Source: a virus (Duplodnaviria > Caudoviricetes). From it: a DNA stretch of 46,059 nucleotides. The notes under the pieces were generated by a model that ran no database searches, was not told the DNA's origin, and saw nothing but the letters and a program-made list of their open reading frames with translations. The stretch lies in IMG/VR virus record IMGVR_UViG_3300005323_000061, positions 1 through 46,059 of that record. One strand, given 5' to 3'. Of this stretch, positions 230 to 25,588 are shown piece after piece. Position 1 is the first letter of the stretch, and every line of letters starts with the position of its first letter. The position numbers and the translations under genes were made by a program.

Positions 230-2350
230 TTACTTCACCACTACGTTTAATCCTTTTTGTTTGGCTAACTCTTCAATGTATAAATACTGTTTCGATGGTG
301 ACTTTGCATGAGCCGCGACTTCTTTTATGAAGTTGTTGGTTGCTTCATTATCTATCTTCTTGACTCTGATGTGGTCCTGATCTAAAGTTGCAACTAATCC
401 TACACCTTTTCCAGTCACCTTTATTTGCTCTTTTGCTATATCCGGTGGCGGTGGAATGGATACGTTCTTTGGTTCAGATGCTCCTTTTTGACCCCACCCT
501 TTCCGCTTCTTTTTCCTAGAACCTACCGATTGTTTACCTTCATCTCTAGTTGAGGTTGCTCCTTTCTCCCTTACTGTGGTAATGTAGTAGTACCCGCCGC
601 GAGCGCCCCTACCAACATGCCTGCCGGGAGGGGCTTCACTAGGGTAGTTGATATACACCTTCGCTTTTGAGATGCCGTCATCTTCTATGAGTTCTAAATC
701 CGCTTTCTTGAACTGCTTCTCCTCTTCCGCTCCATCTCTAGGCGCCTCTGTTCCTTTGCTTCCCTCATCACTTCCAATAGACGCATCAACGTACATCTCA
801 GAGCCGTTGCCATATCTTCCCGCTTCTGTGTCGTCAGGGAGTCCGCCTTCTGTAGTTCCACCTTCACCACCTAACCCCATATTCATCTCTTCGATTGAAG
901 CATCAAGGTCCTCAATTTCTGGTTTAGTGAGTTCGTCTGCTAGTGTAGAGACTTTTAATGCAACAGAGGGTTTTACACCCATTGAGACTAATGTATTGAA
1001 TGTAGTTACTTTAATTGCCTGTGTCTGAGCAACCTTCTGTTCGTCGTCCAGATCAACATCTCTTACGAACTCGAAGTGCCAACCCTGACGATATCCTTTT
1101 AAGTAAGGCAGGATTTCCCTGTTGATCTTAGAAGCGAAATGCTTCATTAAAGGATAAAGCAAGCGCGATTTGGTTATGTTTCGCTTAACGTAGGCTGTCG
1201 CGCGATTATCGCTCTCCCCAATGAATTCGGACGGAGAGAACCCCCACATCGACCAAATAAGTTGGGCCACAAACTTTTGACCCTCAAGCCATTCCATATC
1301 ATGAAGGCGCTGCGCGAGAGTAGTGACCTTCTCGTTGTTAACCGTGTGGATGATGCCACCAAACTTGTATGAACCACGATTCTCTACCTCTACTTTCCTG
1401 ATACGCTGAGCCAACTGTTCCCTTGACATTACATCCGGGTGTTCCCAAACGATTGATGGAACTATACCATTCTCGAATGTCTTGCCTGCTGCTCTTGTGG
1501 AGTCAATTAGGTACTGTAACTGATGCTTTAAGAACTTAAGGAAATCCGTTCCGTAAATCCCATCAGTGCGCGGGTATGACATGAAGTAACAAATCTCTTC
1601 CGGTTGGAACGGTATATATACACCAGTACGAGAACGCTGCCAGTATCTTTGTGTATACCCATGAGACCACCACCCCTGATACATATTAGCCCCACTGGTT
1701 ACGTAGTCTTTAGGGATGTTGATTGACATTGGAACCCTATCAATCTCTTTCCAGAACTCTGTCCCTAAATACCCCTTAATCTCAGTAAGATATCCTGCTT
1801 TATTGAAGGATTTGACCCATACTCCTGCATCGTATCTGATTAAATCCCGGATTGCCATTTTAAGGAGAACGTCGAAACTGTCCTGAGGGTTGGGGGAGTC
1901 TATGAAATCGGTTGCAACCTCTACACTCTCTCCATTACTATCTACAACCTTGTACTCAATAGACCCCATATAGTCCATGAGTGCCTTTTCACACATTGAA
2001 TAATAGGAGTTTCTTGCTAACCTATCGTTTGTTAACTTATCAAAATCGTCCCGCCAAACACCAAGCGTATTATAATAGTTAGATATAGTATGGATTGCTC
2101 TGCGTATAGATTCGGTGTCAGTTACATCATTCTTCTCTTTATTCTCTATAAAAACATCCTTTGAATCATAATGAGAGACTGCTTGGTTAGTTGATGCTTT
2201 AATCAGCATGTCCGCAATTTCCGAATCCATATCTTTAGTAACTATTGGCTCCGTTAGCGGGGGTACTGTAGGTGTTACACTACTTACAGTACTTATACGA
2301 CTTAAATCAAGCAAATCCTCTTCCCTGTATTTACCTCTACGCAATCCCAT
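230..2350 (-). CDS. Phage portal protein with acidic/basic C-terminal extension
   Basis: Portal-like motifs (PNP..SF, F.PEEICYF..PRTDGIYG, F.NG..P, WGFSPSEFIG, L.P....ASKINREIL); directly downstream of the terminase. Confidence 0.9.
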   Translation of the reverse strand: MGLRRGKYREEDLLDLSRISTVSSVTPTVPPLTEPIVTKDMDSEIADMLIKASTNQAVSHYDSKDVFIENKEKNDVTDTESIRRAIHTISNYYNTLGVWRDDFDKLTNDRLARNSYYSMCEKALMDYMGSIEYKVVDSNGESVEVATDFIDSPNPQDSFDVLLKMAIRDLIRYDAGVWVKSFNKAGYLTEIKGYLGTEFWKEIDRVPMSINIPKDYVTSGANMYQGWWSHGYTQRYWQRSRTGVYIPFQPEEICYFMSYPRTDGIYGTDFLKFLKHQLQYLIDSTRAAGKTFENGIVPSIVWEHPDVMSREQLAQRIRKVEVENRGSYKFGGIIHTVNNEKVTTLAQRLHDMEWLEGQKFVAQLIWSMWGFSPSEFIGESDNRATAYVKRNITKSRLLYPLMKHFASKINREILPYLKGYRQGWHFEFVRDVDLDDEQKVAQTQAIKVTTFNTLVSMGVKPSVALKVSTLADELTKPEIEDLDASIEEMNMGLGGEGGTTEGGLPDDTEAGRYGNGSEMYVDASIGSDEGSKGTEAPRDGAEEEKQFKKADLELIEDDGISKAKVYINYPSEAPPGRHVGRGARGGYYYITTVREKGATSTRDEGKQSVGSRKKKRKGWGQKGASEPKNVSIPPPPDIAKEQIKVTGKGVGLVATLDQDHIRVKKIDNEATNNFIKEVAAHAKSPSKQYLYIEELAKQKGLNVVVK

Positions 2351-2379
2351 AAAAATCCTATATAAAGATATGGGAGTGG

Positions 2380-2394
2380 AGTATTTAATAGTTT
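2380..2394 (-). promoter_or_regulatory. Archaeal BRE/TATA-like promoter for portal gene
   Basis: AAACTATTAAATACT about 30 nt upstream of the portal ATG. Confidence 0.5.
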
Positions 2395-3725
2395 CTGGTG
2401 TGCTTTAGTATTTCAAGTCTAGAAGATTGACGACCATCTCCTTCGTCCCACTCAATATATCTTTCTTCATCACTACCATAAGAAGATACATCATACTCCT
2501 CATGTACCTCTTCCATAGGGATTTCGCCCACAACTTCTGTGCGGTTCTTTGAAAGACCCCACGCTGTAAGTAATACACTACTTACACAATCGTCATGCAT
2601 ACCTTCTGGGGCACCATACCTTATGACACCGCTCGGTAAGGCTTCAAATGTGTACGCTGACATTTCATCAATTATAACTTGTATGTGCGGGATGCCTATT
2701 TTCTTATCCTTAATCATAATCATTAGATTTTTGATAAGATCATACTTAGACTTAACAGTAAACGTGTAGGGATAGCACATAACATCCATTCTTTGTAGAT
2801 CTTCTACGATGGGGTCTCCTACACCCGTGCTGTCTAAATAAGCAACAGCATCGTTATATTTCTTTGCAACATACGCTATCTTATCACGTTGGAAGTTCCA
2901 GTCTATCTTATTGAACCTTTCAAAATGAACAACCTTCCCCGTCTGAGTATCTGCCACAGTCAATACCGTAAAATCCTTATGCTTTGCTAAGTCTACACCC
3001 ATCACATAGTTATGTCCGGGTACTGGTTCCCTTAAGTGTTCTCCTAACACACCCCGTATATCTTGGAATACTTCTCCACCACCCTCTATGAATTCTGCCA
3101 TATACTCTTGGCGGAAGATGAGTTCTGGTGTGGTTTCTCTTCTAGCCTCGATTTCTTTATCAAAGTCCGGAATAGATGTATTACACACAGAAGGATAATT
3201 GAAACTCTTGTATTCTGGATATTGGCTCTCGTTTGTACCTCTTAAGTATAACCCATAGAAAAAATTCTTTCCTTTTGGGGTTGATATAAATATCGCTTCA
3301 CCTTTCTTATCAGCGAGAGATGGTTGAAGCGCAACTTCCCATGCGTCGGGTTTAACTCTCGCGGCTTCATCTAGAATAAGAAGATCGAGCCCCTCCCCGA
3401 CTAAAGCGTCCGGGTTATCCGCACTTTTCGCCCAAATAGTTGATCCATTAACTAACTCTATAACCATATCTCCTTCTTTGATGTCCTTGATATATGATTT
3501 CGGAAGGAACTTTTTTAGCATCCTCCATAGAATCGCAGTCTGAGCATATTTAGGGGATACGATCCATATAACTTGGTCTGACTTTGTTAGTGCTTTTATT
3601 ATAACAATATAAGAACAGAGGCGGGTTTTACCGAACCTCCTACCGCAGCACACAACTTTAAATCTATGTGTGTCATTGTATATTTCCATCTGCTTTTCAT
3701 GGAGTGTAAAGTTTAGTTGGGTCAT
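2385..3725 (-). CDS. terL: Terminase large subunit
   Basis: Adenine-binding LHEKQ, Walker A GRRFGKT, Walker B LLILDEAA, ISTPKG coupling motif, RNase H-like GVDLA..D and HDD nuclease motifs. Confidence 0.96.
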   Translation of the reverse strand: MTQLNFTLHEKQMEIYNDTHRFKVVCCGRRFGKTRLCSYIVIIKALTKSDQVIWIVSPKYAQTAILWRMLKKFLPKSYIKDIKEGDMVIELVNGSTIWAKSADNPDALVGEGLDLLILDEAARVKPDAWEVALQPSLADKKGEAIFISTPKGKNFFYGLYLRGTNESQYPEYKSFNYPSVCNTSIPDFDKEIEARRETTPELIFRQEYMAEFIEGGGEVFQDIRGVLGEHLREPVPGHNYVMGVDLAKHKDFTVLTVADTQTGKVVHFERFNKIDWNFQRDKIAYVAKKYNDAVAYLDSTGVGDPIVEDLQRMDVMCYPYTFTVKSKYDLIKNLMIMIKDKKIGIPHIQVIIDEMSAYTFEALPSGVIRYGAPEGMHDDCVSSVLLTAWGLSKNRTEVVGEIPMEEVHEEYDVSSYGSDEERYIEWDEGDGRQSSRLEILKHTRNY

Positions 3726-4873
3726 ACCTTTTCCGCTTTAATACCGAGTTGTTCCATGCGAGTAATAATATTCTGGCAGTAAGTAGGGTCTTTTTCCATC
3801 ATATAACAAGTCCTATTTAAACTTTCGCATACTATCATGGTTGTTCCACTCCCCCCAAAAAGGTCTAATACTGAGCCGTTCAAGTCTGTGAATGTACTTA
3901 CAAGTTCTTTGAATAACCCGATTGGTTTTGGGCAACTGTGAGCATCTCTAAGCCCCACTTCTCTGTCGGTATGGTATTCGAGATGGTCGGTATCCAACAT
4001 TTTATTCTTAGGCTTGGCCCCAATAAATAGGATTGGTTCTGTAACCATGCATCGACTAATCGGGCCGGGGGTTAACGCAAAACCTTTATACCAGAATGCT
4101 GACCCAAGCATATCAAACTGCGTGTAATAATACTTTTCATTCCTGTTACCCGGCGTTATAATTAAGAAAGGACTAAATCGTAATGCATTGTTTACATACT
4201 CATAAATAAAGAACTTATAATCCTCATCCGTTTTATTATCCTCATCTTCTTTGTATTCGTACCCTACATTATAAGGTGGGTCGGTAAGTGTGATATCCGC
4301 TCTCTCCCCATTCAGTAAGTCTTCTACATCACTTTCAGACGTACTATCCCCGCACATTAATCTATGGCGGCCTAGAATAAATATATCCCCAGTCTTTACT
4401 TTCGTAGATGATGAATGGACATCCGTACATAAGGGCTTCTCGGTGGGGGATGTGGCAACCTGTTGGTGAGCACGTATGGCAGCGTCGATCTGTTTCTGCT
4501 CCATAACAAGATTGTCCTTTAGTACCTCTTTTCCCCATGTTTTATCTAACTCCAGTAATATTTCTCCTAGTTTATCTAAATCAAACGTCCCTTTAGTTAA
4601 GTTGAAATTAATTGTTTCCGCTTTACACTCCTCATCTGAGATATCAAGTACTTTAACTTCCACTTCGGTTGCGCCAAGTTCTTTGAGCGCCTTGTGTCGG
4701 TGTTCTCCATCAATTATCACTCCATTCTTATTAACGATGACGGGATCTAAGAATCCTCTTTTCTTGATAGATTTCTTGAGGAACTGATAAACTGTATCCC
4801 GCATCTCGTTCGGATTGTACTCGTTCGGTTTTATGGAGTCTATAGGGACTACTTTAGACTTAACGATCTTCAT
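3722..4873 (-). CDS. ParB-N domain fused to N6/N4 DNA methyltransferase
   Basis: N-terminal PNEYNPN/IIDGEHR ParB motifs; HRLMCGDS, catalytic DPPY and SAM-binding DLFGGSGTT motifs. Confidence 0.92.
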   Translation of the reverse strand: MKIVKSKVVPIDSIKPNEYNPNEMRDTVYQFLKKSIKKRGFLDPVIVNKNGVIIDGEHRHKALKELGATEVEVKVLDISDEECKAETINFNLTKGTFDLDKLGEILLELDKTWGKEVLKDNLVMEQKQIDAAIRAHQQVATSPTEKPLCTDVHSSSTKVKTGDIFILGRHRLMCGDSTSESDVEDLLNGERADITLTDPPYNVGYEYKEDEDNKTDEDYKFFIYEYVNNALRFSPFLIITPGNRNEKYYYTQFDMLGSAFWYKGFALTPGPISRCMVTEPILFIGAKPKNKMLDTDHLEYHTDREVGLRDAHSCPKPIGLFKELVSTFTDLNGSVLDLFGGSGTTMIVCESLNRTCYMMEKDPTYCQNIITRMEQLGIKAEKV

Positions 4874-7659: not shown

Positions 7660-7992
7660 ATGCGCTGTAAATGCCACAACTGTTTTATTATATTCGATGA
7701 TCATAAGAATATTTGTCCTATCTGCGGGAAAGAAGCAATGGAAATGTGCGTGAAGGATCATATATGTACGTGCGCGCTGGAAGTCACACCGGGTATGCAG
7801 AACTGCGAGGTTTGCGGGAAACCCACCTGTAAATGCGGAAGTCACGATGTTTTTCAAGTTTCCCGCGTAAAGTGAGTGAAGATCCGTTCTTACTTGCGCG
7901 CTTCGGGGTATCTTGCAAACATTGAATCTTTTAATCTAGGAAAACGCGCCGAATTGCGCGACAGGAAGCGATATAGCATATCTGTTAAATAG
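7660..7992 (+). CDS. Small NrdD-like zinc-ribbon/glycyl-radical domain protein, spliced: join(7660..7870,7904..7992), 99 aa
   Basis: After removing 7871-7903 the protein reads ...CGSHDVFQVSRVTGYLANIESFNLGKRAELRDRKRY, the class III RNR C-terminal glycyl-radical signature. Confidence 0.85.
7871..7903 (+). other. 33-nt archaeal-type bulge-helix-bulge (BHB) mRNA intron
   Basis: Exon stem TCCC/GGGG, 4-bp helix GCGT/GCGC, 3-nt bulges AAA and TTC, paired intron stem; contains an in-frame TGA. Confidence 0.8.
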
Positions 7993-8016
7993 TTAAACAA
8001 CCAATAACATAAGTAT

Positions 8017-8622
8017 ATGGATATAATAGAAGTGATAAAGATGTACGAATCTGGTATGAGTACGTATCAAATTGGGGGGTTAATTAATGAAAAACCTAAC
8101 AAAGTGTGGCTAGCCCTAAAAAAAGCAGGTGTTAAAACCCGGTCAAAAAAAGAGGCTTTGGAGAAATACGCAAAACGGGATGTTTGTGTTGTGTGTGGTG
8201 AAACATTTCGTGTTAGGGTAGATTGGTTGCATGGCAATCATTATAGGAAGACTTGTTCGCCCGATTGTGAGAAACAGTATAGATCAAAGCGGATAAAAGA
8301 CACGTACACACAAGAGCGTAAGGACCGTCTATCTTTATTATTGACTGGGAGAGAGATAACTTGGCATATTCCACGCGGTGCGGAGAGACCAAATTGGAAA
8401 AACGGGAGATCGTCAAAGACATATCAAAGAATTGCTTTTAAAGAGTATGGGTTTGAGAGGATCTGTTCAATATGCGGGGCTGTGGAAAATATATGCGTTC
8501 ATCACAAAGATGAGAATAGAAGCAACAACACTAAAGAGAACTTACAGATTGTTTGTAAACCGTGTCACGCATCGCTCCACTCTAAAGGAAACGCTCTTTG
8601 GATTAAACATTTAAAAAGATAG
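8017..8622 (+). CDS. HNH endonuclease (HTH + zinc finger + HNH)
   Basis: CSICG....CVHHKDENRSNNTKENLQIVCKPCHASLH; N-terminal HTH-like segment and CxxC...CSxxC. Confidence 0.9.
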   Translation: MDIIEVIKMYESGMSTYQIGGLINEKPNKVWLALKKAGVKTRSKKEALEKYAKRDVCVVCGETFRVRVDWLHGNHYRKTCSPDCEKQYRSKRIKDTYTQERKDRLSLLLTGREITWHIPRGAERPNWKNGRSSKTYQRIAFKEYGFERICSICGAVENICVHHKDENRSNNTKENLQIVCKPCHASLHSKGNALWIKHLKR

Positions 8623-11246: not shown

Positions 11247-11406
11247 AATACTTAGTTGGGAGTTTCGTGGATGCACACTACACGCTCAGTTAAATACAAG
11301 TCGGTCTTGTGCATTTACTACAGGAAGTGGTGGACTAAATAGGTTCTATAATTTCAGATACCACTTCAAGATAGGTGATGATTATGCAATGGCAACTCAA
11401 AACTAA
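11227..11406 (+). CDS. W...GxDY micro-protein
   Basis: ...ILSWEF...FKIGDDYAMATQN. Confidence 0.7.
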   Translation: MVPPLPKILSWEFRGCTLHAQLNTSRSCAFTTGSGGLNRFYNFRYHFKIGDDYAMATQN

Positions 11407-11548
11407 TACGCTTACTGGAAGAGATCCGGTAGAAAAGACCTGTTGTTGCGTGGTTCCGGGTGAGTATGGTACATACCCCTACAAATACTCAGGAGATAAT
11501 TTTATTAACAGGTTTGAGTTTGGTGAAGATTACCTCAAGCCGCAGTGA
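11384..11548 (+). CDS. W...GxDY micro-protein
   Basis: MQWQL...FEFGEDYLKPQ (hand-translated, 54 aa); GGTGA RBS. Confidence 0.72.
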   Translation: MQWQLKTNTLTGRDPVEKTCCCVVPGEYGTYPYKYSGDNFINRFEFGEDYLKPQ

Positions 11549-11577
11549 TTCCTTAACTGGATGAGCGAGGAGTTTAC

Positions 11578-11733
11578 ATGACTGCTTGGAGTGTTGATAT
11601 ATTGTGGGACTCGCAATTGCCCGTGATATTGGAATGTAAATCGAGGGCCAATTGCCCACTTGGTATAAACAATAAGTGGTGCTTGTTTGCTTCTAAGATT
11701 ACACCACTAATAAGAGGTGAGGATTATGGATGA
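11578..11733 (+). CDS. W...GxDY micro-protein
   Basis: MTAWSV...LIRGEDYG (hand-translated, 51 aa); GGAG RBS. Confidence 0.72.
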   Translation: MTAWSVDILWDSQLPVILECKSRANCPLGINNKWCLFASKITPLIRGEDYG

Positions 11734-12043
11734 CCAAGATGTAATTACACAGATGCTTGTTTCAGATGATGCGAAGTTCGACCGACAGATGGTTGTACTT
11801 AACCTTGAAGCAGGTAGACCAACGGCTTCCACAATAAAGAAGTTGTTGGTTGTTGAACCGACTGAACGAAAGAAAGTTACACCCGAACAGCAGGCTACAC
11901 TTGATGCCGCATGGAAGTTCCGCGTTGATTGTAAGCGCGCTTTAAACGACTGCGAAGATAATAGACAGATCACCGCATTAAAGAAAGCGTACTTGAAGTC
12001 AGTTGATGACTACAAAGCGTTATACGCTAAGATTTGTGGGTGA
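11726..12043 (+). CDS. Hypothetical protein
   Basis: GAGGTGA RBS before ATG 11726. Confidence 0.7.
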   Translation: MDDQDVITQMLVSDDAKFDRQMVVLNLEAGRPTASTIKKLLVVEPTERKKVTPEQQATLDAAWKFRVDCKRALNDCEDNRQITALKKAYLKSVDDYKALYAKICG

Positions 12044-12047
12044 GACT

Positions 12048-12455
12048 ATGATGTGTTCCGCAAGAATTACCCTTATTTGCGATGTCCCAAAAAACGTGCA
12101 AACTGAGATTACAAATGACTTTAAAAAAGCATTTGAGGGGATTGATATTGGGTGGTATGGGATCACCAACCAGATAATTATGGAAACGCTCTTTACAGGA
12201 AAGCAACTCAAACAATCAAAAGACAGGGGGGTTGATATCAATGTGCCGTATAACTACGATATGTTTGAACGCTTAAAACGCGCATCTAAAAAACATTTTG
12301 GTTCTATAAAAATAAAAGGCCCGGACCTGTCGTGGTGTTCGTCTAATTTTTATGATAGTTTTGATCGGTTATCACACCTAACTGATATTTTGTTTGCTGC
12401 AAGAAAGTTAGATAGATACGGGCATGTTGTAAAAATACAATATAAGTCTGGGTGA
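12048..12455 (+). CDS. Hypothetical protein
   Basis: GGTGA RBS before ATG 12048. Confidence 0.65.
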   Translation: MMCSARITLICDVPKNVQTEITNDFKKAFEGIDIGWYGITNQIIMETLFTGKQLKQSKDRGVDINVPYNYDMFERLKRASKKHFGSIKIKGPDLSWCSSNFYDSFDRLSHLTDILFAARKLDRYGHVVKIQYKSG

Positions 12456-12459
12456 AATC

Positions 12460-12978
12460 ATGCACCCAAATGTAAAGAGGTTACTAAAAGAACTCAAAAA
12501 ATCCCCCCAAACCGTAGAAGAACTTTCAAAAACACTCGGCGGATCTCCAAATGATATACTTATATGGGCAAAACTCGCAGAATCGGAGGGTTTTTTGGAT
12601 ATTAAAACCTACAAATCAAACCGGGTTGTTTATACCGAAGAGGGTAAACAATACTTAAAATCTGGACTTCCAGAAACGCAACTCCTTAATGCTATTATTG
12701 ATGAGACCACAATATCATCACTTAAATCTCACCCGATGTTCTCTAAAGGGTTTGGTGTTTTAAGGAAGATGGGGGCAATCAAAATTGAAGGCGAACGTGT
12801 AATAAAGATTCCGGGGGTTAATACGGAGGAAAAAGAGGCCATTTTCAGATCGTTTTTAATTCAACCACAACAAAAAGTTGTATTCAGTGGAGGAGTTGGA
12901 ACCCTTAAAGATAGGGAACTGTATCTTTCTGTACCGATAGATTTAAGTTATGATTATGAAACGCCGTATCATTGGTGA
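12460..12978 (+). CDS. Stand-alone N-terminal winged-helix region of archaeal phenylalanyl-tRNA synthetase alpha subunit (no catalytic domain)
   Basis: YTEEGKQYLKSGLPETQLL and GFGVLRKMGAIKI match the archaeal PheS N-terminus (LTEEG..Y...GLPE..L; G....K.GWI.I). Confidence 0.75.
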   Translation: MHPNVKRLLKELKKSPQTVEELSKTLGGSPNDILIWAKLAESEGFLDIKTYKSNRVVYTEEGKQYLKSGLPETQLLNAIIDETTISSLKSHPMFSKGFGVLRKMGAIKIEGERVIKIPGVNTEEKEAIFRSFLIQPQQKVVFSGGVGTLKDRELYLSVPIDLSYDYETPYHW

Positions 12979-12982
12979 AATC

Positions 12983-13273
12983 ATGTTAAAACAAATTTGC
13001 GCCTCAATAAGAGAGGTTAAATATACCAAAGAGGGTCTTGAACAGCGACAAAAAGACCTTGAAGCGGAACTTGAAGCCTCGCTTGAAATATCTTACCCCA
13101 CATACCGCATTCTTAAACAGATGCGGGTTAAACTTGAGAAGTACCGCAAAGATAGATGTGTTTTTAGTCACTATGATAATACACCTAGGGATTCAACTCG
13201 CCTTGAGATGATACGGCACTTTGACACTCTCATTGCGGAACACCGCCAAGAGATAATGAAAAACGAAACTTAA
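12983..13273 (+). CDS. Hypothetical coiled-coil protein
   Basis: GGTGA RBS before ATG 12983. Confidence 0.65.
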   Translation: MLKQICASIREVKYTKEGLEQRQKDLEAELEASLEISYPTYRILKQMRVKLEKYRKDRCVFSHYDNTPRDSTRLEMIRHFDTLIAEHRQEIMKNET

Positions 13274-13289
13274 ATTCACCACATTTTTA

Positions 13290-13360
13290 GCGCGTATATC
13301 CTAGTGGTAGGGAGCCGTTCTGATACAGCGATTGCACCAGTTCGATTCTGGTTACGCGCA
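13290..13360 (+). tRNA. tRNA-Ile (anticodon GAT)
   Basis: Acceptor GCGCGTA/TACGCGC, D arm TCCT-AGTGGTA-GGGA, anticodon loop CT-GAT-AC, T arm ACCAG-TTCGATT-CTGGT, discriminator A; no encoded CCA. Confidence 0.85.
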
Positions 13361-13370
13361 TGGAGTTATT

Positions 13371-13577
13371 ATGAAGTGGCTTATTGAAAGTGGAGAATAC
13401 CTTTCGTTTGAAAGAGTTCTTGGGGGAATACGACCCGCAGTTATATTAGGTAATAAAATACGCAGAGATAGTTGGTGTAAAGGCGGGAGTTGGAAAGGGA
13501 CAAACCTGATTATAGAGCCAAACAACAGCGGCGAATCAGACTGAAAATGGATAGTAATAGGTGATGATTATGAGTGA
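13371..13577 (+). pseudogene. W...GxDY micro-protein interrupted by an in-frame TGA at 13542-13544
   Basis: MKWLIES...GESD*KWIVIGDDYE*. Confidence 0.55.
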
Positions 13578-13797
13578 AAAATATAACGTCCCATGGTTAT
13601 TAGAGCCTTCAAACATTGAGAGAACCGAGTTTCACTTAATTGCGGATTATGCATATTATATTGACCGCTCATATGGTAAATTCCAAGTTAGGGAATGGGG
13701 GGCACTGCATTATACAATGCCGCGAGTGAATGGGCTTCCAGTAAGAGGAAATGATTATATACTTGATGACCGCGCCGCAGTATATAAACCTTTCTGA
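13570..13797 (+). CDS. W...GxDY micro-protein
   Basis: MSEKYNVPWLL...PVRGNDYIL... Confidence 0.7.
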   Translation: MSEKYNVPWLLEPSNIERTEFHLIADYAYYIDRSYGKFQVREWGALHYTMPRVNGLPVRGNDYILDDRAAVYKPF

Positions 13798-14144
13798 AAA
13801 ACGCATAGTACGATTAATATATTAATAAAAAGGTGACCACATGTTACATGTATTACACACAGAGAACCGACGTAATGTATACAATGTGTATGTACTACAC
13901 GCGATTTTAAGAAAGTCTCTGAAAAATATCATATCTAAATCTTTAATGAAAAAGTCATATCTAAAAAGCCATTCATTGTTTGTACTTATAAGTATATATA
14001 TTGAACGAAAGAGGGTAACAACACTATATAAAGGTATCTTTATGCAACTCAAATTTTTATTTTCCATTTTCTCAAAAGTATCTACACAATCTACACCACT
14101 TACACACGAACTCGTTGTTAATCACTCTATTTGAGGTTTTACCT

Positions 14145-14414
14145 ATGCCGTACTCTTCAATTCCGTATTTTCACACATGCACGCAACGTGTAAGTACTAC
14201 ACCTACCCGTTGTTCTTGGCAGATCAACGAGGGCAATCTAAATAGGATGGAACAAAATTACCCTTTTTTAATGCACTTAACTAAAGGGTATGTGTGGAGA
14301 ACCAAAATGGGAAGGGCCGCTCACACAGATACTTACAAAGATTTTTACTGTGAATATTGTAAAAATGGGTATCATATGGTTCCAGCAATAGGTGACGATT
14401 ATGAACGTGCTTAA
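14145..14414 (+). CDS. W...GxDY micro-protein
   Basis: ...CSWQI...PAIGDDYERA; GAGGT RBS. Confidence 0.65.
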   Translation: MPYSSIPYFHTCTQRVSTTPTRCSWQINEGNLNRMEQNYPFLMHLTKGYVWRTKMGRAAHTDTYKDFYCEYCKNGYHMVPAIGDDYERA

Positions 14415-14631
14415 GTGGCATTTAACTGACGGATATCGTTGTGGCCTGTATTTTGAGGTTAATAGCGTATCGGAAGGACTTATAATCCGCGATCTTGGTA
14501 AGGTTGGGACATTATGGAGATATAGACATTTCCCCGAATCGGACAGGAGAGAGTATAAATTCTTCTACTGTGAGCCGAGTGTAAAAGACGGATCAACCCC
14601 AGTACCGATGATAGGTGAAGATTATGGTTAA
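14401..14631 (+). CDS. W...GxDY micro-protein
   Basis: MNVLKWHL...PMIGEDYG. Confidence 0.75.
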   Translation: MNVLKWHLTDGYRCGLYFEVNSVSEGLIIRDLGKVGTLWRYRHFPESDRREYKFFYCEPSVKDGSTPVPMIGEDYG

Positions 14632-14809
14632 ATGGAGTGTTGGGGGGTATGGTACACCCTCTCTAAATGTTGACAAATCAGAAGTTATACTCATAGTACA
14701 CAGAGCAGGTCATTTAACAAGAGAAGGTGGAGAAGTAACTGAAAATATGCGTCCAGTTAAGTTCTACAATGAGTTAATCGTTAAAGGTGATGACTATGCA
14801 AATCCTTAA
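14624..14809 (+). CDS. W...GxDY micro-protein
   Basis: MVKWSV...IVKGDDYANP. Confidence 0.75.
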   Translation: MVKWSVGGYGTPSLNVDKSEVILIVHRAGHLTREGGEVTENMRPVKFYNELIVKGDDYANP

Positions 14810-14999
14810 ATGGATAGTAAGGCAGTCTAATAGACCTCTTGGAGTTGAAAGGCCGGGCCGCGCGGATTGTTTTTATGACCCGATGCACAGATCAACATTT
14901 AGCGAGCATATGCAATTAACTTCTCCGTGGGACGGTATATTTAACCTTGAAGCAAATAATCGTGGACAAATTGCGATTGGTGATGACTATGTACTGTGA
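14796..14999 (+). CDS. W...GxDY micro-protein
   Basis: MQILKWIV...IAIGDDYVL. Confidence 0.75.
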   Translation: MQILKWIVRQSNRPLGVERPGRADCFYDPMHRSTFSEHMQLTSPWDGIFNLEANNRGQIAIGDDYVL

Positions 15000-15129
15000 T
15001 AAAAACAAACGCAAGTGTACGTATCACTTCCTAACCTGTGAGTGTTTTGGGAAGAACGGGTGTTCCAGAGTTACTGATAATACAACTCATGACGATCCGA
15101 AGGTGTTCCACAAATGCGTCCAGTTATGA
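14989..15129 (+). CDS. Small Cys-rich protein
   Basis: MYCDKNKRKC...; GGTGA RBS. Confidence 0.5.
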   Translation: MYCDKNKRKCTYHFLTCECFGKNGCSRVTDNTTHDDPKVFHKCVQL

Positions 15130-15338
15130 AGTGGGTATATAAGGATTTCGCATTAAGAGTCAATCCAGAGGGGAATGCTGATGGAGGGAGAATTGTTGAT
15201 CTGACTTTTACTCATACAATGAACACAATTTATCTTTGGAATTACTTTCCACATCAGTTCCGCGCAAGATTGGTGCCCTTCTTTGTTAATCCTGATATAA
15301 TTCACATATATACAGGTGACGATTATGCAAGATTATAG
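15126..15338 (+). CDS. W...GxDY micro-protein
   Basis: MKWVY...IYTGDDYARL. Confidence 0.75.
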   Translation: MKWVYKDFALRVNPEGNADGGRIVDLTFTHTMNTIYLWNYFPHQFRARLVPFFVNPDIIHIYTGDDYARL

Positions 15339-15528
15339 TTGGGGGGTTTTATATGCTGATCCATATTATGATCTCATAACTAACGGGTATGTAGGTAAAG
15401 ATTGCCTAAAGATGTGGATTAATTCGAATAGTTATATCCTTGTAATTAATAGGTGGTTAGCAGGATATACTAAAAAATACGCCTTTGAAGTTGGTGAGGA
15501 TTATGCAATGGGCAATACGACACAATAG
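15325..15528 (+). CDS. W...GxDY micro-protein
   Basis: MQDYSWGV...FEVGEDYAMG... Confidence 0.72.
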   Translation: MQDYSWGVLYADPYYDLITNGYVGKDCLKMWINSNSYILVINRWLAGYTKKYAFEVGEDYAMGNTTQ

Positions 15529-15700
15529 ATTAATGACTATGAGGGCGTGGCCTTGGGGTAGTGATTTTAGTACTTTACTTTATATATGGGACAGATCATT
15601 ACGCAGAGTCTTTACTACAACTCCTAAAGTGGTTACTATATCTTCGGGTAAGTTAAAAAGAGGTTCAAACTACCAAAGAGCATCAGAGAATGTGAATTGA
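15503..15700 (+). CDS. W...GxNY micro-protein
   Basis: MQWAI...LKRGSNYQ... Confidence 0.7.
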   Translation: MQWAIRHNRLMTMRAWPWGSDFSTLLYIWDRSLRRVFTTTPKVVTISSGKLKRGSNYQRASENVN

Positions 15701-15748
15701 CGGTTCGCATCCGCCACTCTGAATCCGGCCAAACCGGAAGTGAAAAAC

Positions 15749-15943
15749 ATGAACATCCAATGGTATGTCTTTGAAGAGAGAGAAATGTGTCATTTGGGGT
15801 ACGATTATGGTATCCGTAAATCACACGTTTTACAACCAAGATCAAACAAAATCGGTGTTTTCTATAATTGGAAATGGAGTCAACACCCGTTTGTTTTGAG
15901 TGGTATGAACGACATTGCCATTGGAAAGGATTATTTAAGGTGA
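15749..15943 (+). CDS. W...GxDY micro-protein
   Basis: MNIQWYV...IAIGKDYLR. Confidence 0.72.
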   Translation: MNIQWYVFEEREMCHLGYDYGIRKSHVLQPRSNKIGVFYNWKWSQHPFVLSGMNDIAIGKDYLR

Positions 15944-15947
15944 AAAA

Positions 15948-16217
15948 ATGGTTGAAAAAAGATGTAAACACGAAATCCACGAGTCGATGAAAGGCAAACC
16001 GTTGGAGAAGTGGCACATTTACATCCATGAAGGTGAAGATATTCCAAACTCAAAGCAGAACGGAGACCTCATAATGGCGGTTTTCGATCAGTACGGAAAG
16101 AGTTGGGATGTACTTGCTGTTGGTGTAGATGGCAAACTCCACTTGTTCGTCGGTCTCCCGGACTGGATTGAAGGAGTCAAAGTAGACTCCAAAGGCCGCA
16201 TTGTTGTCGAAAGTTAA
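15948..16217 (+). CDS. Hypothetical beta-rich protein
   Basis: AGGTGA RBS; protein-like composition. Confidence 0.75.
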   Translation: MVEKRCKHEIHESMKGKPLEKWHIYIHEGEDIPNSKQNGDLIMAVFDQYGKSWDVLAVGVDGKLHLFVGLPDWIEGVKVDSKGRIVVES

Positions 16218-16227
16218 GGAAATTACT

Positions 16228-16428
16228 ATGTTTTGGTTTATTCGTGGTAACGATCTCTGCGTGCACTCACCAATCCCCGCGTTTGGGTATTGGATGGTGC
16301 TCCGTGGTTTACAATTCAATTACATCGAAAGGTGGGGTTGGGTTGATGATGCCCACAAAGACGCGGTTGTTGAACCACTACAAAGAGAACACCAAAACAA
16401 AGTAATATTCGGAAAAGATTATGGGTGA
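16228..16428 (+). CDS. W...GxDY micro-protein
   Basis: MFWFI...VIFGKDYG. Confidence 0.72.
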   Translation: MFWFIRGNDLCVHSPIPAFGYWMVLRGLQFNYIERWGWVDDAHKDAVVEPLQREHQNKVIFGKDYG

Positions 16429-16431
16429 GTT

Positions 16432-16593
16432 ATGGAGTGGAAGATTGCGAAAGCGCATTTAAGTTGTGATTTGGGATTGATCATATTCCCTACAAGTTCT
16501 AAACTTATTAAGACGAGAGGCGCTCGCATTCCACCACTTATAACTTCATCTCATGGCGAAATCAAAACTGGAGATGACTATGCATATCTTTGA
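16432..16593 (+). CDS. W...GxDY micro-protein
   Basis: MEWKI...EIKTGDDYAYL (hand-translated, 53 aa). Confidence 0.7.
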   Translation: MEWKIAKAHLSCDLGLIIFPTSSKLIKTRGARIPPLITSSHGEIKTGDDYAYL

Positions 16594-16786
16594 ATGGTTA
16601 CTTGAGTGCGGTACTAAGGACACGCTTCATTGCTACGATGTTGATGCAAGGTTTAGGTGGTCCGTGTTATACATACAGATGTCAAAATGCCTTAAACGCG
16701 ATCATGGCTTTGATGGTGATGCATCATTCAGTACGCGCAATGACAGGATAACCATTGGTAAAGATTATAGTCGGGAGAGACTATGA
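16580..16786 (+). CDS. W...GxDY micro-protein
   Basis: MHIFEWLL...ITIGKDYSRERL. Confidence 0.72.
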   Translation: MHIFEWLLECGTKDTLHCYDVDARFRWSVLYIQMSKCLKRDHGFDGDASFSTRNDRITIGKDYSRERL

Positions 16787-16998
16787 AGTTCGATGAATTA
16801 AAAGACTCAAAACAGAGAGATGGAGTAATCTGTATCTCTGACACTTGTATTGCGACAGGTACAGGTGATAACTTTGAAACGGCAGGAGAATTCTGTTCTG
16901 AGTGCGATTGCGGATTCACACCAGAACAGGTAACTAGAGAGAATCTTGAAGAGATTAACAACATCCGCATCAAATACGGTCAAAAGAAGGTTGAGTAA
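16783..16998 (+). CDS. Small Cys-containing hypothetical protein
   Basis: ATGA overlap with the upstream gene; GGGAG RBS. Confidence 0.65.
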   Translation: MKFDELKDSKQRDGVICISDTCIATGTGDNFETAGEFCSECDCGFTPEQVTRENLEEINNIRIKYGQKKVE

Positions 16999-16999
16999 C

Positions 17000-17305
17000 A
17001 TGATCAAATCACGAGAGGAACTCTTAATTGAGTCGAAAGTAAAGGAAGAAATCGACCGCCGAGAAGCCTGCAAAGCGGAAGCCAAAAGGAAAGCAACTGA
17101 GTACCGCAAAAATGTGATGAAAGGGCGCGCGCAGTTCTTGTGCTTCTACTACTCGATATGTGCAACAATCGTTGTCATAGTCATTGCGGCTGCACTTGCT
17201 CTCGGATGGGCTCGGTTCACATCGTTTGGCGATATGGTTTCGTCAACATTGTTGATGATTGGTGTGCTTGCCCCGTGGGTATGGGCGTACCCATACTTTG
17301 ATTGA
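17000..17305 (+). CDS. Membrane protein (two C-terminal TM helices)
   Basis: Charged N-terminus followed by two hydrophobic segments. Confidence 0.7.
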   Translation: MIKSREELLIESKVKEEIDRREACKAEAKRKATEYRKNVMKGRAQFLCFYYSICATIVVIVIAAALALGWARFTSFGDMVSSTLLMIGVLAPWVWAYPYFD

Positions 17306-17314
17306 AGGAGATTC

Positions 17315-18661
17315 ATGCCAATCAAAAACGGGCGGGTTTACGTTTCCGTTAATTGTGGTTGCGGAAAAGAAGTGGTTGTTTCTTCCGGTGATTTCGGTAC
17401 GTACTGTACTAACTGCGGGAGACCGATCTTCGCTGCAAGTTACAATGAACAGTTAAACGTTGAAATCCGCAATGTAGTAAAAGCAGAAAGACTTAAAATG
17501 CGGAAAGAACGTAAGGGTCATCCTCCGGTAGAGGATTACTCGGTGGGTTCTTCCGCACTAATAAAAACCTGCGCTAACTGTGGGGGAAATCTTTCTGCCG
17601 GGGGATTATACATTGTCGATGGTGAACCTATCTGTAAGGTTTGCTATGAGACTAAAATTCCCCGATGTAAGGGTTGTAACGAACGCCACTTCCCGCAGTA
17701 CTTAAAGAAAGGGCTATGTGAAGGGTGCATTGTCTCGTTTGCAACCTGCAAGAACTGTGGTACAGTGTATGACAAGCGAAAAACTCACGAGTTTGAACTT
17801 GAAGGAAAGTCTTTCTGTGAGAACTGTGTTCCGCGCTATCTGGAAGCAAAAGGCGTGAGGTTCAACGGATACTCCCACAAACCAAAACCCGTATTCCTCG
17901 GTGAAAAGGAGGATTTGGTATTCTATGGTGTCGAACTCGAAACCGATAACTCACAAAGACGTTCAGAGTTGATGGCGAGAGCGCACTGTGACGAGATTTA
18001 TTTCAAATCTGATGGGAGTCTTGGGCCCGGCGGTGTTGAAATCGTATCCCATCCCGCAACGCTTAAGTACCACATGAACGAGTTTCCGTGGAAAAACATT
18101 CTCTCATCCGCTAAAATATGCGGGTATAAGAGCCACACCGGAGTAAGTGGAGACCGGCACTCAAACCATCCTACTTGTGGGTTACACATCCACGTTAACA
18201 AGGAAGCATTCGGAAGAACTACAAGTGAACGCGACACCAGAGAAGCGAAACTACTCGTACTCGTAGACAAGTTCTGGAACAAACTCGTCATATTCTCAAG
18301 GAGAGATAAACGCTCTTTAGAGAACTGGGCGAGACGGTATGCTGACTTTGACGTAACCAACGACCAACTATCTGATATTATCAGTAAAGCCAAGTCTGAG
18401 AACTCAAGAGACCGTCGTCTTGCTGTAAATTTCGGTGCAAATAACTCTGCAACAGTAGAGTTCCGCATGTTCCGGGGAACGCTGAACTACGAAACGTTGA
18501 TTGCAACTATCCAGTTGATTGACCTCCTTGTGGAAATGTCGAAGTTACCTACCAAGAAGGTTCAGGCAATGACTTGGGACGAGTTCTGTGAAGAAGGGTC
18601 CAAGTACGAGGAATTCACAGGATACTTAACAAGACTCCGTGGAATGAAGCGGGATATCTGA
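17315..18661 (+). CDS. Amidoligase (COOH-NH2 ligase, glutamine synthetase-like fold) with N-terminal CxxC repeats
   Basis: YGVELE, KSDGSL...EIVSHP, CGLHIHV and TVEFRMFRGTLN motifs; many CxxC pairs N-terminally. Confidence 0.88.
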   Translation: MPIKNGRVYVSVNCGCGKEVVVSSGDFGTYCTNCGRPIFAASYNEQLNVEIRNVVKAERLKMRKERKGHPPVEDYSVGSSALIKTCANCGGNLSAGGLYIVDGEPICKVCYETKIPRCKGCNERHFPQYLKKGLCEGCIVSFATCKNCGTVYDKRKTHEFELEGKSFCENCVPRYLEAKGVRFNGYSHKPKPVFLGEKEDLVFYGVELETDNSQRRSELMARAHCDEIYFKSDGSLGPGGVEIVSHPATLKYHMNEFPWKNILSSAKICGYKSHTGVSGDRHSNHPTCGLHIHVNKEAFGRTTSERDTREAKLLVLVDKFWNKLVIFSRRDKRSLENWARRYADFDVTNDQLSDIISKAKSENSRDRRLAVNFGANNSATVEFRMFRGTLNYETLIATIQLIDLLVEMSKLPTKKVQAMTWDEFCEEGSKYEEFTGYLTRLRGMKRDI

Positions 18662-18720
18662 GGTGTACTTTGTGCATCGTTTACACACAGTTTATATGAT
18701 ATTGTAACCCACATATTCAC

Positions 18721-19176
18721 ATGAAAGAAATTCCACTCACTCGCGGAAAAGTGGCGATTGTTGACGATGAGGATTATGAGAAATTGCGCACTATTAAATG
18801 GCATTCCCAAACAACAAAGGTAAAGGGAAGAATCTTACTATATGCCGCTCACTCGGTTTATAGGAGAGAGGGTTCGCACAAAGTTTTGATAATGCACAGG
18901 CTCATAACAAACTGCCCAAAAGGGTTAGAGGTTGATCATATCGATGGAGACGGACTTAACAATCAAAAGTCAAATCTCCGTGTCGTAACTAGATTCCTCA
19001 ACCAACAAAACAGACATGGGAACAAAACAAGCAAGTACACCGGAGTATATTATGACAAACAGATCAACAAATGGAGGGCACAAGTACAGATCAATGGAAA
19101 AAGATATGATTTTGGTCTTTTTGACACAGAAGAAGAGGCACACACAAAACGGGAGGGATTTGTATCTGTATTATAG
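18721..19176 (+). CDS. HNH endonuclease with C-terminal AP2 domain
   Basis: AIVDDEDYE, MHRLI...VDHIDGDGLNNQKSNLR, SKYTGV...KWRAQ...G.F.TEEEA; its own TATA box (TTTATATG) at 18691. Confidence 0.93.
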   Translation: MKEIPLTRGKVAIVDDEDYEKLRTIKWHSQTTKVKGRILLYAAHSVYRREGSHKVLIMHRLITNCPKGLEVDHIDGDGLNNQKSNLRVVTRFLNQQNRHGNKTSKYTGVYYDKQINKWRAQVQINGKRYDFGLFDTEEEAHTKREGFVSVL

Positions 19177-20027
19177 TGCATAAGGAACCGGATGTAAAAC
19201 CCCCAACCGAAGCCATATTGACCCAATGCCTAAAAACTCATAAAGATGGGTTTGGTGCGATGTGGCGTGAGGGTAAATACATCTGTATCGTAAAAGGACT
19301 CTTTGACATCAAAGGGATAATGAAAATTATCCAGAATGTACCAAAAGAGTCAGAAGCGGCGTTTCACTTCCGAATGGCAACACACGGGACGGTAAGTGCG
19401 GGCAACTGCCACCCCTTCCCACTTTCTATTAGGAACGACGCATTACAGAAAACTGCGGGAGTGTTTGATACAGGATTAATGCACAACGGCATTATATCGG
19501 GTTTCGGGTATAGGGATTCATCCACACACTCAGACACGATGAATTTTATTAAGTACCTTTGTAGGTCAACCGGTGGGATATACACAATGGATAAACTGAC
19601 CAAAAACATCAAAGATCATTACGGAAAGTTTATCATATTCACACCAAACTGGACCTACACATGGGGTACTTTTGTAGATGACGGGGGGCTTAAGTATTCA
19701 AACACAACATACAAAGTTTACCCTAAATGGAATGGAAATTTCCTAGGTGACGGTAACGACGACTACGATTACAACAAGAGATTCAAGAAAAATAAACGCA
19801 AACACTACCTACCGCTTGTAAAAGAAGTCAACCCGGAAGCATTGCAATGGAGATCAGACTCAAGAACTGCGGTATATCTCGGAGTTGTGGGAGATGTGTT
19901 CTACTACAGAGGGGTAACAATCTTCTGTGAAAGCGGCTATGATAAAGCAGAACTTGACTTCATAAAGGAAGAAATTGACTTATCTATCCTTGAGGGGGAG
20001 TTTGAGGGAAATTATAACCCTATATAA
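19164..20027 (+). CDS. Class II (Ntn) glutamine amidotransferase; start uncertain
   Basis: CIIVHK at 19167; DGFG, HFRMATHG....NCHPF, LMHNGII and SDT motifs. The catalytic Cys is preceded by ATC rather than ATG. Confidence 0.85.
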   Translation: MCIIVHKEPDVKPPTEAILTQCLKTHKDGFGAMWREGKYICIVKGLFDIKGIMKIIQNVPKESEAAFHFRMATHGTVSAGNCHPFPLSIRNDALQKTAGVFDTGLMHNGIISGFGYRDSSTHSDTMNFIKYLCRSTGGIYTMDKLTKNIKDHYGKFIIFTPNWTYTWGTFVDDGGLKYSNTTYKVYPKWNGNFLGDGNDDYDYNKRFKKNKRKHYLPLVKEVNPEALQWRSDSRTAVYLGVVGDVFYYRGVTIFCESGYDKAELDFIKEEIDLSILEGEFEGNYNPI

Positions 20028-20209
20028 ATTTCTACGAGTCGTAAACCGTATTTGTCGGTGACAGGTACGGGCGAACTCCTACGAGATTGGAGGGAGTGGC
20101 AAGAATCCAACGAAATTGTGGACTGCAAGCCACGTTAAAACGTTGAAACCCGTGTTGGAGATAACTACCACTCTTAAAACACAAACGAAAGAAATGGAGT
20201 GAAGAAAAA

Positions 20210-23638: not shown

Positions 23639-25588
23639 ATGGAAGACGAGTTAACTAAAAGCGCAATAAGTACGTTACGCACAAAGTATCGAAAGGAGAT
23701 TGCACAAATACGCGGGGGTATCCTATCGAGTTTGACTATAGACTACACTACTATCCTTAATAACCGACTAGCAGAATTAATCATCCGCAAGAAACACTTA
23801 GCAGACATCTGTTTTGTAGATGCGTTTAAAGAGTTGGGGGTTGAACCACTTACGGTTAGGTATATAAACCTGCCGACCACCCCAATAAGAAATCTTAAAT
23901 CCGAGTTTGTAGGACAGACTCGCTCTTTTGAAGGTATCGTTCGTAGAGTATCTGAGGTTAAGTCAAAAGCCACTTTAGCCGTATTTGAGTGTTCGTATTG
24001 CTCAACCAGAGTGTCTAAACCTCAGGGGAATGATACTACTTATCCAGAAAGTAAATGCGATAATTGCGGTAAGATTGCTAAGTGGAGGGTGCTTGCAGAT
24101 CAAGGTGAATATATAGATTACCAACAAATAACTGTACAAGAATTCCCTGAAAGTATAAGAGGAAGTGACCAACCAAAGAGTATAACTATAACTATTACTG
24201 GTGACTTATGTGGAGTCGTTACCCCGGGAAACAGAGCCACAATCTGCGGGACACTTAAACTGAAAAAGATAAAAGGAGACAATGGATTAATATTTGAGCC
24301 GTATATTGATGGAAACTCTATAGTTATTAAAGATGAAACATATGATAATATAACTATAAGTGACGAGGACCTATCAGAAATAACCGCCCTATCTAAAACA
24401 CCCAACCTTATAGATTTATTTGCATCCTCTATTGCTCCAACCGTTTATGGGAACGATGATGTAAAACGCGGCATAACATTACAATTATTCGGAGGCGTTC
24501 CTAAAACAATTGCTGGTACTCGAATAAGGGGGGATATACATGTACTGCTAATAGGAGATCCTAGTACCGCCAAATCCGTACTCTGTAAATCCGCAGTTGC
24601 GTTAGTTCCAAGAGGTATATTCACACACGCTTATTCCACATCTAAAGCAGGATTAACAGCAACCGCAGTCAAAGAGGACGAACATTGGGTATTGGAGGCG
24701 GGAGCGTTAGTACTAGCAAACGGCGGGGGATTAGGAGTTGATGAATTAGATAAGATGACTACAGAGGATAGGGAAGCACTCCACGGCGCAATGGAACAGC
24801 AGGAGATTAACATTGCTAAGGCCGGGATAGTTGCTAAACTCTATACAAGATGCTTCTTATTAGGTGCAGCAAATCCAAAGTTAGGAAGATTTGATTTATG
24901 TCAGGGATTGGCTCAGCAGTTCGATTTAGCACCTACCCTTCTCAGTAGGTTCGATTTAATATACCCAATGACAGATACACCAGAACCCAAACGAGACTCA
25001 GATATTGCGGATTACATATTAAACACTCATACAACTCAGAAAGTGAAAGAAACCGTTCCCTCTGAGATGTTTAGAAAGTATGTATCTCATGCAAGAAGCA
25101 TCAACCCGCAGTTAACTAAAGAAGCCGCAGCCGTTATAAAAGATTACTACATAAAGGTTCGTGGATTAGCAAACAACATGGCTACCATTCCTATTACTGC
25201 AAGAAGCCTTGAAGCGTTAATCCGTATGAGTGAGGCTGCTGCTAGAATGAGACTCTCAGAAACAATAACGGTGGATGATGCCACACTTGTTGTAAGTGTA
25301 GTTGACACCTGCTTAAGACAGATAGCCTACGACTCAAAGACTGGAAGTTGGGATGTCGATAAAGTAATTAACCGCTACCCAAAAAGGACAGCGAATATTA
25401 TTGGTCGATTGACTGATACGATAATTTCTTTAGGAGATACTCATGGTGCAGAAGTGTCTAACGTCGTGAAACACATGAAAGAAATGTATGGGGTTGCGGA
25501 GGAAGATACGCTTAGTCATATTGAATTAATGAAGAATGAAACCCGAGTATTCAGTCCTAAAACAGGCTATCTAAAAGTTCTTAAGTAA
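23639..25588 (+). CDS. mcm: MCM replicative helicase
   Basis: C4 zinc finger, YIDYQ.I.VQE.PE, IAPTVYG..DVK, RGDIHVLLIGDPSTAKS (Walker A), VDELDKM (Walker B), LLSRFDL (Arg finger) and ITARSLE. Confidence 0.97.
   Translation: MEDELTKSAISTLRTKYRKEIAQIRGGILSSLTIDYTTILNNRLAELIIRKKHLADICFVDAFKELGVEPLTVRYINLPTTPIRNLKSEFVGQTRSFEGIVRRVSEVKSKATLAVFECSYCSTRVSKPQGNDTTYPESKCDNCGKIAKWRVLADQGEYIDYQQITVQEFPESIRGSDQPKSITITITGDLCGVVTPGNRATICGTLKLKKIKGDNGLIFEPYIDGNSIVIKDETYDNITISDEDLSEITALSKTPNLIDLFASSIAPTVYGNDDVKRGITLQLFGGVPKTIAGTRIRGDIHVLLIGDPSTAKSVLCKSAVALVPRGIFTHAYSTSKAGLTATAVKEDEHWVLEAGALVLANGGGLGVDELDKMTTEDREALHGAMEQQEINIAKAGIVAKLYTRCFLLGAANPKLGRFDLCQGLAQQFDLAPTLLSRFDLIYPMTDTPEPKRDSDIADYILNTHTTQKVKETVPSEMFRKYVSHARSINPQLTKEAAAVIKDYYIKVRGLANNMATIPITARSLEALIRMSEAAARMRLSETITVDDATLVVSVVDTCLRQIAYDSKTGSWDVDKVINRYPKRTANIIGRLTDTIISLGDTHGAEVSNVVKHMKEMYGVAEEDTLSHIELMKNETRVFSPKTGYLKVLK

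Follow-up and report, generated by a model that had tools for sequence, protein, structure and literature searches.

Predicted tRNA-type mini-introns at two neighbouring sites around the glycyl-radical motif of a gene in putative methanogen viruses and unplaced contigs

In archaea, the tRNA splicing endonuclease (EndA) cuts RNA at motifs of the bulge-helix-bulge (BHB) type, after the second base of each bulge. Both this cutting rule and its precedent in mRNA are documented in the accessible text of earlier studies (PMC6379350, PMC2738675, PMC7714728). According to the parts of a 2020 report that are open, the archaeal mRNAs named as carrying BHB introns were only cbf5 and one Haloferax 5' UTR (PMC7714728). 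The cbf5 intron is cellular and crenarchaeal, it is served by a hetero-oligomeric EndA, its BHB is mostly unconventional, and its splicing was seen by cDNA, as far as the accessible pages describe it (PMC2738675). For the Haloferax volcanii case, the 5' UTR of HVO_1309, the same partial source describes an mRNA BHB intron cut in vitro by a euryarchaeal EndA (PMC7714728). In the literature on BHB introns and archaeal viruses that was consulted, mostly open-access main texts of surveys whose supplements could hold cases, we found no BHB or mRNA intron of such a kind in a viral protein gene, and a survey from 2026, covering 3708 genomes of archaeal viruses, contains the word "intron" only among its references (PMC13465236).

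We analysed a complete tailed-virus record of 46,059 bp, with direct terminal repeats at its ends; this whole stretch is here called the window. Profile matches located portal, terminase and capsid-like genes together with an MCM helicase (Table 1). In a phage collection the best matches of this helicase were archaeal viruses, and among its best 120 matches every named protein belonged to Methanomicrobiales, at 40-42% identity. Because of these named relatives, we infer a methanogen host, presumably of the Methanomicrobiales. Across the whole complete virus there was no match to EndA, to a radical-SAM protein or to a full NrdD.

Several other features of the window were recorded. An intronless tRNA-Ile(GAT) lies at 13290-13360, and the sole Rfam match in the window is a tRNA. 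The region 17315-20027 holds amidoligase-like and glutamine-amidotransferase-like genes, parted by a second free-standing endonuclease gene, of HNH-AP2 type, at 18721-19176. A long series of short + strand ORFs runs from about 11300 to 23600, many of them following a strong ribosome-binding-like motif that recurs along the run (repeat families D2, D5, D7 and D9). Next to the terminase, 3722-4873 encodes a ParB-N domain fused to an N6/N4 DNA methyltransferase; amid the structural genes, 42795-44927 encodes a PKD-domain protein with a polysaccharide deacetylase domain. A protein of the YspA/SLOG family is encoded at 27967-28428.

The gene under study begins with an ORF (7660-7875) that ends in SRVK and a stop, and the conserved tail resumes in the same frame after 33 nt, as the preliminary description of this DNA had reported. 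That description had called the gene NrdD-like. The glycyl-radical motif is that of class III ribonucleotide reductase (RNR), but the gene is not a full NrdD: its product after predicted splicing is a 99-aa stand-alone C-terminal Zn/glycyl-radical domain. Exon 2 aligned to positions 533-562 of PF13597 (E 3.7e-4, below cut-off), the PF13597 match in the whole virus was limited to positions 502-562, and a profile comparison matched residues 696-736 of PDB 8P23 with E 1.8e-9. The predicted radical-site Gly codon is 7906-7908. The predicted spliced product holds the C-terminal Zn site and the RxxGY radical loop of NrdD, and the full catalytic barrel with the active-site Cys of class III RNR is absent from the virus. 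The gene belongs to a family of Cys-rich proteins of about 100-140 aa that have the radical loop of class III RNR at their end; the family is chromosomal in Methanolacinia, Methanoregula, Methanospirillum, Methanomicrobium and Methanofollis and is found also in many virus contigs, its named members being Methanomicrobiales. One cellular-type family gene (L055, 1449-2000) is flanked by genes that we take to be pyrF-like and cobinamide amidohydrolase-like.

Table 1. Features of the interrupted gene and of its surroundings in the window
Feature	Position	Strand	Basis or remark
Exon 1: small Cys-rich (Zn-binding) protein ending in SRV and the first base of the Thr codon	7660..7870	+	ORF 7660-7875; DZR match below cut-off; aligns to intronless homologues
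Canonical BHB	7861..7908	+	Exon and central helices of 4 bp each; two 3-nt bulges; intron helix
Predicted 33-nt intron, site A	7871..7903	+	Register test; layout common to the 7 site-B introns
Exon 2: remaining bases of the Thr codon, then Gly, Tyr and the conserved C-terminal tail; stop 7990-7992	7904..7992	+	Profile matches to PF13597 and 8P23
Free-standing HTH-HNH endonuclease gene	8017..8622	+	HNH/HNH_3 matches below cut-off; 24 nt past the stop; candidate mobiliser
MCM helicase	23639..25588	+	Archaeal-virus marker; closest named relatives Methanomicrobiales

The insert falls in phase 1 of the Thr codon, two bases ahead of the radical-Gly codon (site A), and contains an in-frame TGA at 7873-7875. 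When recomputed, the coordinates and pairing of the BHB came out exactly as first described. The exon helix (7861-7864 with 7905-7908) includes one U-G among its four pairs, the central helix (7865-7868 with 7898-7901) consists of G-C, C-G, G-C and U-G, the bulges lie at 7869-7871 and 7902-7904, and the intron helix pairs 7872-7879 with 7890-7897. The interior of the insert is made of a 6-bp stem, a 1-nt bulge, a 3-bp stem and a 7-nt loop at 7882-7888. All BHB pairs of the window form and lie within the minimum-energy fold (MFE), which reached -15.8 kcal/mol for 7861-7908; for 7846-7925 the value was -23.9 (z -2.75), with 2 of 200 shuffles as low. The insert did not match any Rfam catalytic-intron model, and at 33 nt it is not ribozyme-sized; there is no endonuclease ORF inside it, the HNH ORF lying outside.

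Eleven possible removals of 33 nt give SRxxGY, six of them reading RASGY, two RVSGY, two RVKGY and one RVTGY. The single RVTGY register is that of the BHB rule: a cut after the second base of each bulge removes 7871-7903 and leaves a 99-aa product; the resulting SRVTGY is what the preliminary description had deduced. It had also proposed a comparison with intronless homologues; once aligned, these read SRVTGY exactly, with R-V-T-G-Y unchanged in all 61 rows (alignment A2, picked from the hits of homologue searches). Of 242 family proteins up to 300 aa long, 186 read RVTGY, 28 RITGY and one RVSGY, and neither RAS nor RVK occurs at the motif. A search based on words may be biased towards RVTGY, but 131 hits came from a search without word index. 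The BHB shape alone is weak evidence in 46 kb and is not rare. Run on shuffled windows, the same scan averaged 3.27 pattern hits each; an MFE-supported hit was present in 52 of 100 shuffled windows, and one at or below -15 kcal/mol in 12 of 100; this null of 100 shuffles replaced a more favourable one of six (0/6). What is beyond chance is a BHB exactly at a homology-defined insert, in the sole register that regains the invariant Thr, for which arithmetic from the 100-shuffle null gives a joint chance of about 1e-5 for 11 registers.

At least nine further DNA alleles carry inserts of 32-33 nt, two at site A and seven at a second position, site B, located 6 nt downstream of site A, where the insert follows the first base of the Tyr codon. 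The site-A alleles are the window, L070 and L198; those of site B, all with 33 nt, are L036, L057, L089, L131, L133, L151 and L242. The second-base rule yields SRVTGYL in 10 of 10 recovered alleles. L070 and L198 have one common 32-nt frameshifting insert at the same base as that of the window, with a canonical BHB of which all pairs can form. Compared with the window, this BHB shows compensatory changes, C-G being replaced by G-C in the central helix and by A-U in the exon helix. In the site-B alleles three of four central pairs form, a relaxed BHB, and the exon helix is 2-bp or shifted by 1 nt in all seven; the local MFE of L070, L198 and L036 is without the central helix. The preliminary description had named loss of the BHB geometry in related inserts as a finding that would count against an intron: the site-A relatives L070 and L198 kept the canonical form, and at site B only a relaxed form was retained. 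As a separate observation, the G-A opposition at the fourth central pair is invariant in the seven site-B alleles, while the neighbouring pairs covary. Methanomicrobia are described as having an alpha'2 EndA. In the accessible part of one table, alpha'2 and alpha4 EndAs are of narrow specificity (PMC6379350), and such enzymes might cut the relaxed site-B motif poorly; the relaxed motif is also described as permissive by chance in the accessible text of a recent preprint (10.64898/2026.10.13.758758). The G-A mismatch and the weak or shifted exon helix of site B count against the structural evidence; the window motif itself is canonical.

The alleles came from several sources. L036 was one of three viral pattern matches (L039 is the same as L036), L198 one of 53 in species genomes, and L057, L070, L089, L131, L133 and L151 were among the at least 119 metagenome pattern matches listed, of which 111 had no family match and one (L055) an intronless family match; L242 came from a set of 24 viral family loci. 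Chance rows accounted for two of the three viral matches, 52 of the 53 in species genomes and 23 of 23 in another scan. The exact 17-nt intron pattern had three matches in viral contigs, a second assembly of the same virus and two unrelated ones. No archaeal genome fitted the intron-bearing pattern in the species-genome scan, a result that is suggestive only, since the pattern demands a particular exon-2 sequence. Nine representative proteins depart from the family consensus right at the motif, and eight were treated as intron-bearing, the ambiguous P0240 being excluded from the count. L036 and L242 are IMG/VR virus records, that of L036 being complete and with an MCM; L089 sits after a terminase-like fragment, and the other alleles are unplaced contigs. 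L198 is a 5.6-kb contig with Dam-like and integrase-like neighbours in G006, a MAG titled Candidatus Paceibacterota with no EndA match, and is probably a mis-binned virus contig. Two chance pattern matches, L035 and L037, are unrelated short contigs with one long RNA-virus-polymerase-like ORF. A contig of run X3, from another freshwater sample, matches exon 1 at 7813-7852 and then shows the intronless motif, which reveals an intronless relative.

Eight 33-nt introns, that of the window and the seven of site B, align without gaps into a central helix, a bulge, a 6-bp stem, a 1-nt bulge, a 3-bp stem and a 7-nt loop. In these eight rows 9 of 13 pairs change on both sides and 92% of cells pair, a level reached by 0 of 500 shuffles, against 31-57% in slid structures; the same sequences had served for drawing the structure, and L070 and L198 were omitted for length. 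Covariation in related alleles, another check suggested at the outset, therefore came out positive, the BHB being kept with compensatory changes. At site B the intron base facing the Thr wobble base tracks the exon (A-U in four alleles, U-A in two, U-G in one), which is expected only if the two are paired. Invariant across the 33-nt introns are A-U and G-C pairs and a loop G, and the site-A intron of the window has the same 7-nt loop as the site-B intron of L057. A pairing between loop and junction, looked for by eye on the alignment, fits the window and not most alleles, and was rejected.

The preliminary description had proposed that a viral protein gene contains a BHB mRNA intron and so depends on host tRNA splicing, and the geometry, the register, the covariation and the lack of a viral EndA support it. 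We consider it very probable, judging from sequence, that the insert belongs to a mobile family of mRNA mini-introns spliced by the host EndA. The truncated ORF could instead suggest a pseudogene with an inactivating hairpin and an incidental BHB, all the more as BHB-like folds arise by chance at the rate given above; yet ten alleles share two exact phase-1 sites and covarying stems. Moreover, seven of the ten recovered inserts hold in-frame stops (TGA, TAG or both), two are frameshifted and one is open, and behind them exon 2 is intact in every allele, with mostly silent change: silent versus non-silent differences are 13 vs 2 (L089/L012), 11 vs 3 (L133/L089), 4 vs 1 (L133/L012) and 6 vs 3 (L070/L198), a pattern less marked where the pair is distant (11 vs 8 and 7 vs 12). 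Recoding of the TGA as Sec or Trp, giving a 110-aa protein with the downstream RASGY as its motif, would suit an insert with a single TGA and a length that is a multiple of three, and L036, P0155, P0176 and P0229 are stop-free across the insert. However, in sister alleles the insert contains TAG or two stops, or shifts the frame, RASGY occurs in 0 of the 242 family proteins, read-through at site B would lose the conserved Tyr after the radical Gly, and TGA terminates 9 of the 23 large ORFs of the window. Both readings fit poorly; we regard a pseudogene as very unlikely and read-through as scarcely credible.

Removal or evasion of the hairpin by other means deserves mention as well, either by ribosomal bypassing over the stem, as in T4 gene 60, or by excision at the DNA level. 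A stable hairpin of fixed length and site-B central helices that are imperfect for narrow EndAs would agree with it, but the boundaries obey the BHB second-base rule at both sites, the intron bases of the central helix covary with exon bases and, against DNA excision, the joined form of the window was absent among the contigs of four DNA runs, contigs that show presence only; we hold this explanation to be highly improbable. An assembly artefact can be given a negligible probability: the insert is present without differences in Logan DNA contigs (not raw reads) of runs X1 and X2, and while X1 may be the window's own source, the identical insert in the X2 contig, which spans 7811-8039, and in a second IMG/VR assembly (L002), together with homologous inserts in other samples, speaks against it. 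If the insert is indeed spliced, the intron could be a regulatory switch or a functional small circular RNA and not a selfish passenger. The length of 33 nt fixed in 8 of 10 recovered alleles, the invariant pairs and loop G and the loop shared with L057 would fit such a role, but invariance over eight related rows may be descent, and the intron is absent from 22 of the 24 viral family loci, near-identical genes included. In addition, a covariance model detected no further copy in the window and, over 20 virus records, matched only two training records and none of the other 18; the same model did not recognise the divergent intron of L070 and L198. A functional intron is thus judged unlikely.

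The putatively host-spliced intron family appears to be mobile. In a tree of 61 rows and 114 columns, in which many forks are unresolved, well-supported branches force at least three site-A changes and at least five site-B changes. L133 (site B) groups with the intronless L012 (96/42, not starred), and L242 (site B) with P0222 (99/95), whose site A is deduced from the protein only. The apical hairpins of the window and of the site-B allele L057 are identical in 12 of 14 positions, so that a single intron lineage occupies both sites. The HNH protein of the window is 60% identical to the HNH after L070, its closest relative, and the exon-1 proteins are 48% identical; more distant HNH relatives are located after one allele with a site-B intron and after several intronless ones. 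After the HNH of L242, the region 2017-3136 contains an ORF that we take to be QueD/6-pyruvoyl-tetrahydropterin-synthase-like, presumably a hint at 7-deazaguanine DNA modification. The earlier idea that the intron shields its site from a nuclease has gained a candidate in the adjacent HNH, but the association is not significant: an HNH stands beside 3 of 7 intron alleles versus 5 of 24 intronless ones (p=0.33; site A 2/3), in a count that dropped six loci with less than 250 nt of flank (L131, L133, L151, L008, L011 and L012) and includes both near-copies L211 and L216. L198 carries the site-A intron without an HNH. L070 and L198 are the same until 13 nt beyond the intron and then diverge, the HNH being present only in L070, an exchange boundary that fits trans homing of the intron and equally HNH entry into an intron-bearing allele. 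Spread of the intron may have been aided by free-standing HNH nucleases downstream of the gene, in collaborative or trans homing, a view that we favour somewhat less than its opposite.

In the mechanism that we propose, the host polymerase would transcribe the gene and the RNA would fold into the predicted BHB, for which covariation speaks. Host EndA, following its established rule, would make one cut after 7870 and one after 7903, and the exons would be joined by a host ligase; the 99-aa stand-alone NrdD-type radical domain would then be made, as selection on exon 2 suggests. A small intron family would have entered two positions 6 nt apart, the Thr codon at site A and the Tyr codon at site B. 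Following the reasoning in the accessible text of PMC2988022, the intron would persist and be hard to lose because only its exact deletion restores the essential motif. Tentatively, and with confidence clearly on the low side, we suggest a wider picture: viruses of methanogens may carry mobile 33-nt tRNA-type mRNA introns at alternative sites round a radical motif, which host EndA would excise as small conserved RNA rings and which would spread with free-standing HNH nucleases, so that a viral spare RNR radical domain would depend on host tRNA splicing. If a viral coding sequence does contain a canonical BHB intron, a virus would be drawing on the tRNA splicing of its host to express a gene, in a euryarchaeal lineage, and annotation would routinely mistake such viral genes for truncated ones. 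Since genes that are nearly identical occur with the intron, without it, or with it at either site, BHB intron gain becomes directly testable; the substrate is under 50 nt, one EndA assay suffices as a test, and the specificity of EndA could readily be probed with the invariant G-A of site B.

As regards the protein, GrcA is said to be a spare part of pyruvate formate-lyase. Because glycyl-radical enzymes are cleaved by O2, as stated in the accessible text of PMC12288474, we suggest that the 99-aa protein could in a GrcA-like manner be a spare radical domain for the O2-sensitive class III reductase of the host, which we see as almost an even call. In the literature consulted, as far as its text was accessible, a rescue role for NrdD such as we propose by analogy with GrcA is not described. 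The radical domain of P. copri NrdD (676-739) has a Zn site followed by Gly711 and the highly conserved Tyr712, according to the accessible sections (PMC11226230), and the predicted viral protein likewise has a Zn site and then a loop with the radical Gly and Tyr. Unlike this domain and GrcA, the viral protein stands alone with 99 aa, with extra Cys pairs and no catalytic barrel.

Among described introns, phage group I introns in collaborative or trans homing resemble the viral intron in being endonuclease-less, in lying where a gene of nucleotide metabolism encodes a conserved active-site motif and in having a free-standing HNH gene beside them, on the evidence of the open portions of PMC2988022 and PMC10448857. 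They are self-splicing ribozymes of bacteriophages, whereas the viral intron has 33 nt, would be spliced by protein and has a non-significant HNH link. Transposed tRNA introns of Thermoproteales are likewise related short BHB introns at differing positions (as cited in the accessible text of 10.64898/2026.10.13.758758), there in cellular tRNA genes and here in a viral mRNA. The HVO_1309 intron lies in a cellular untranslated region and, as the accessible text presents it, interrupts no reading frame (PMC7714728). The closest likeness in detail concerns cbf5: according to the available pages of PMC2738675, its pre-mRNA intron, like the viral one, is short (16-44 nt), EndA-type and in a protein gene, lies between the first and second codon base at a catalytic motif, has no internal ORF, and is predicted to be cut between the second bulge base and the third. 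In contrast to cbf5, the intron described here is viral, its host is probably a euryarchaeal methanogen, its BHB at site A is canonical, its splicing is predicted, and it occurs patchily at two neighbouring sites.
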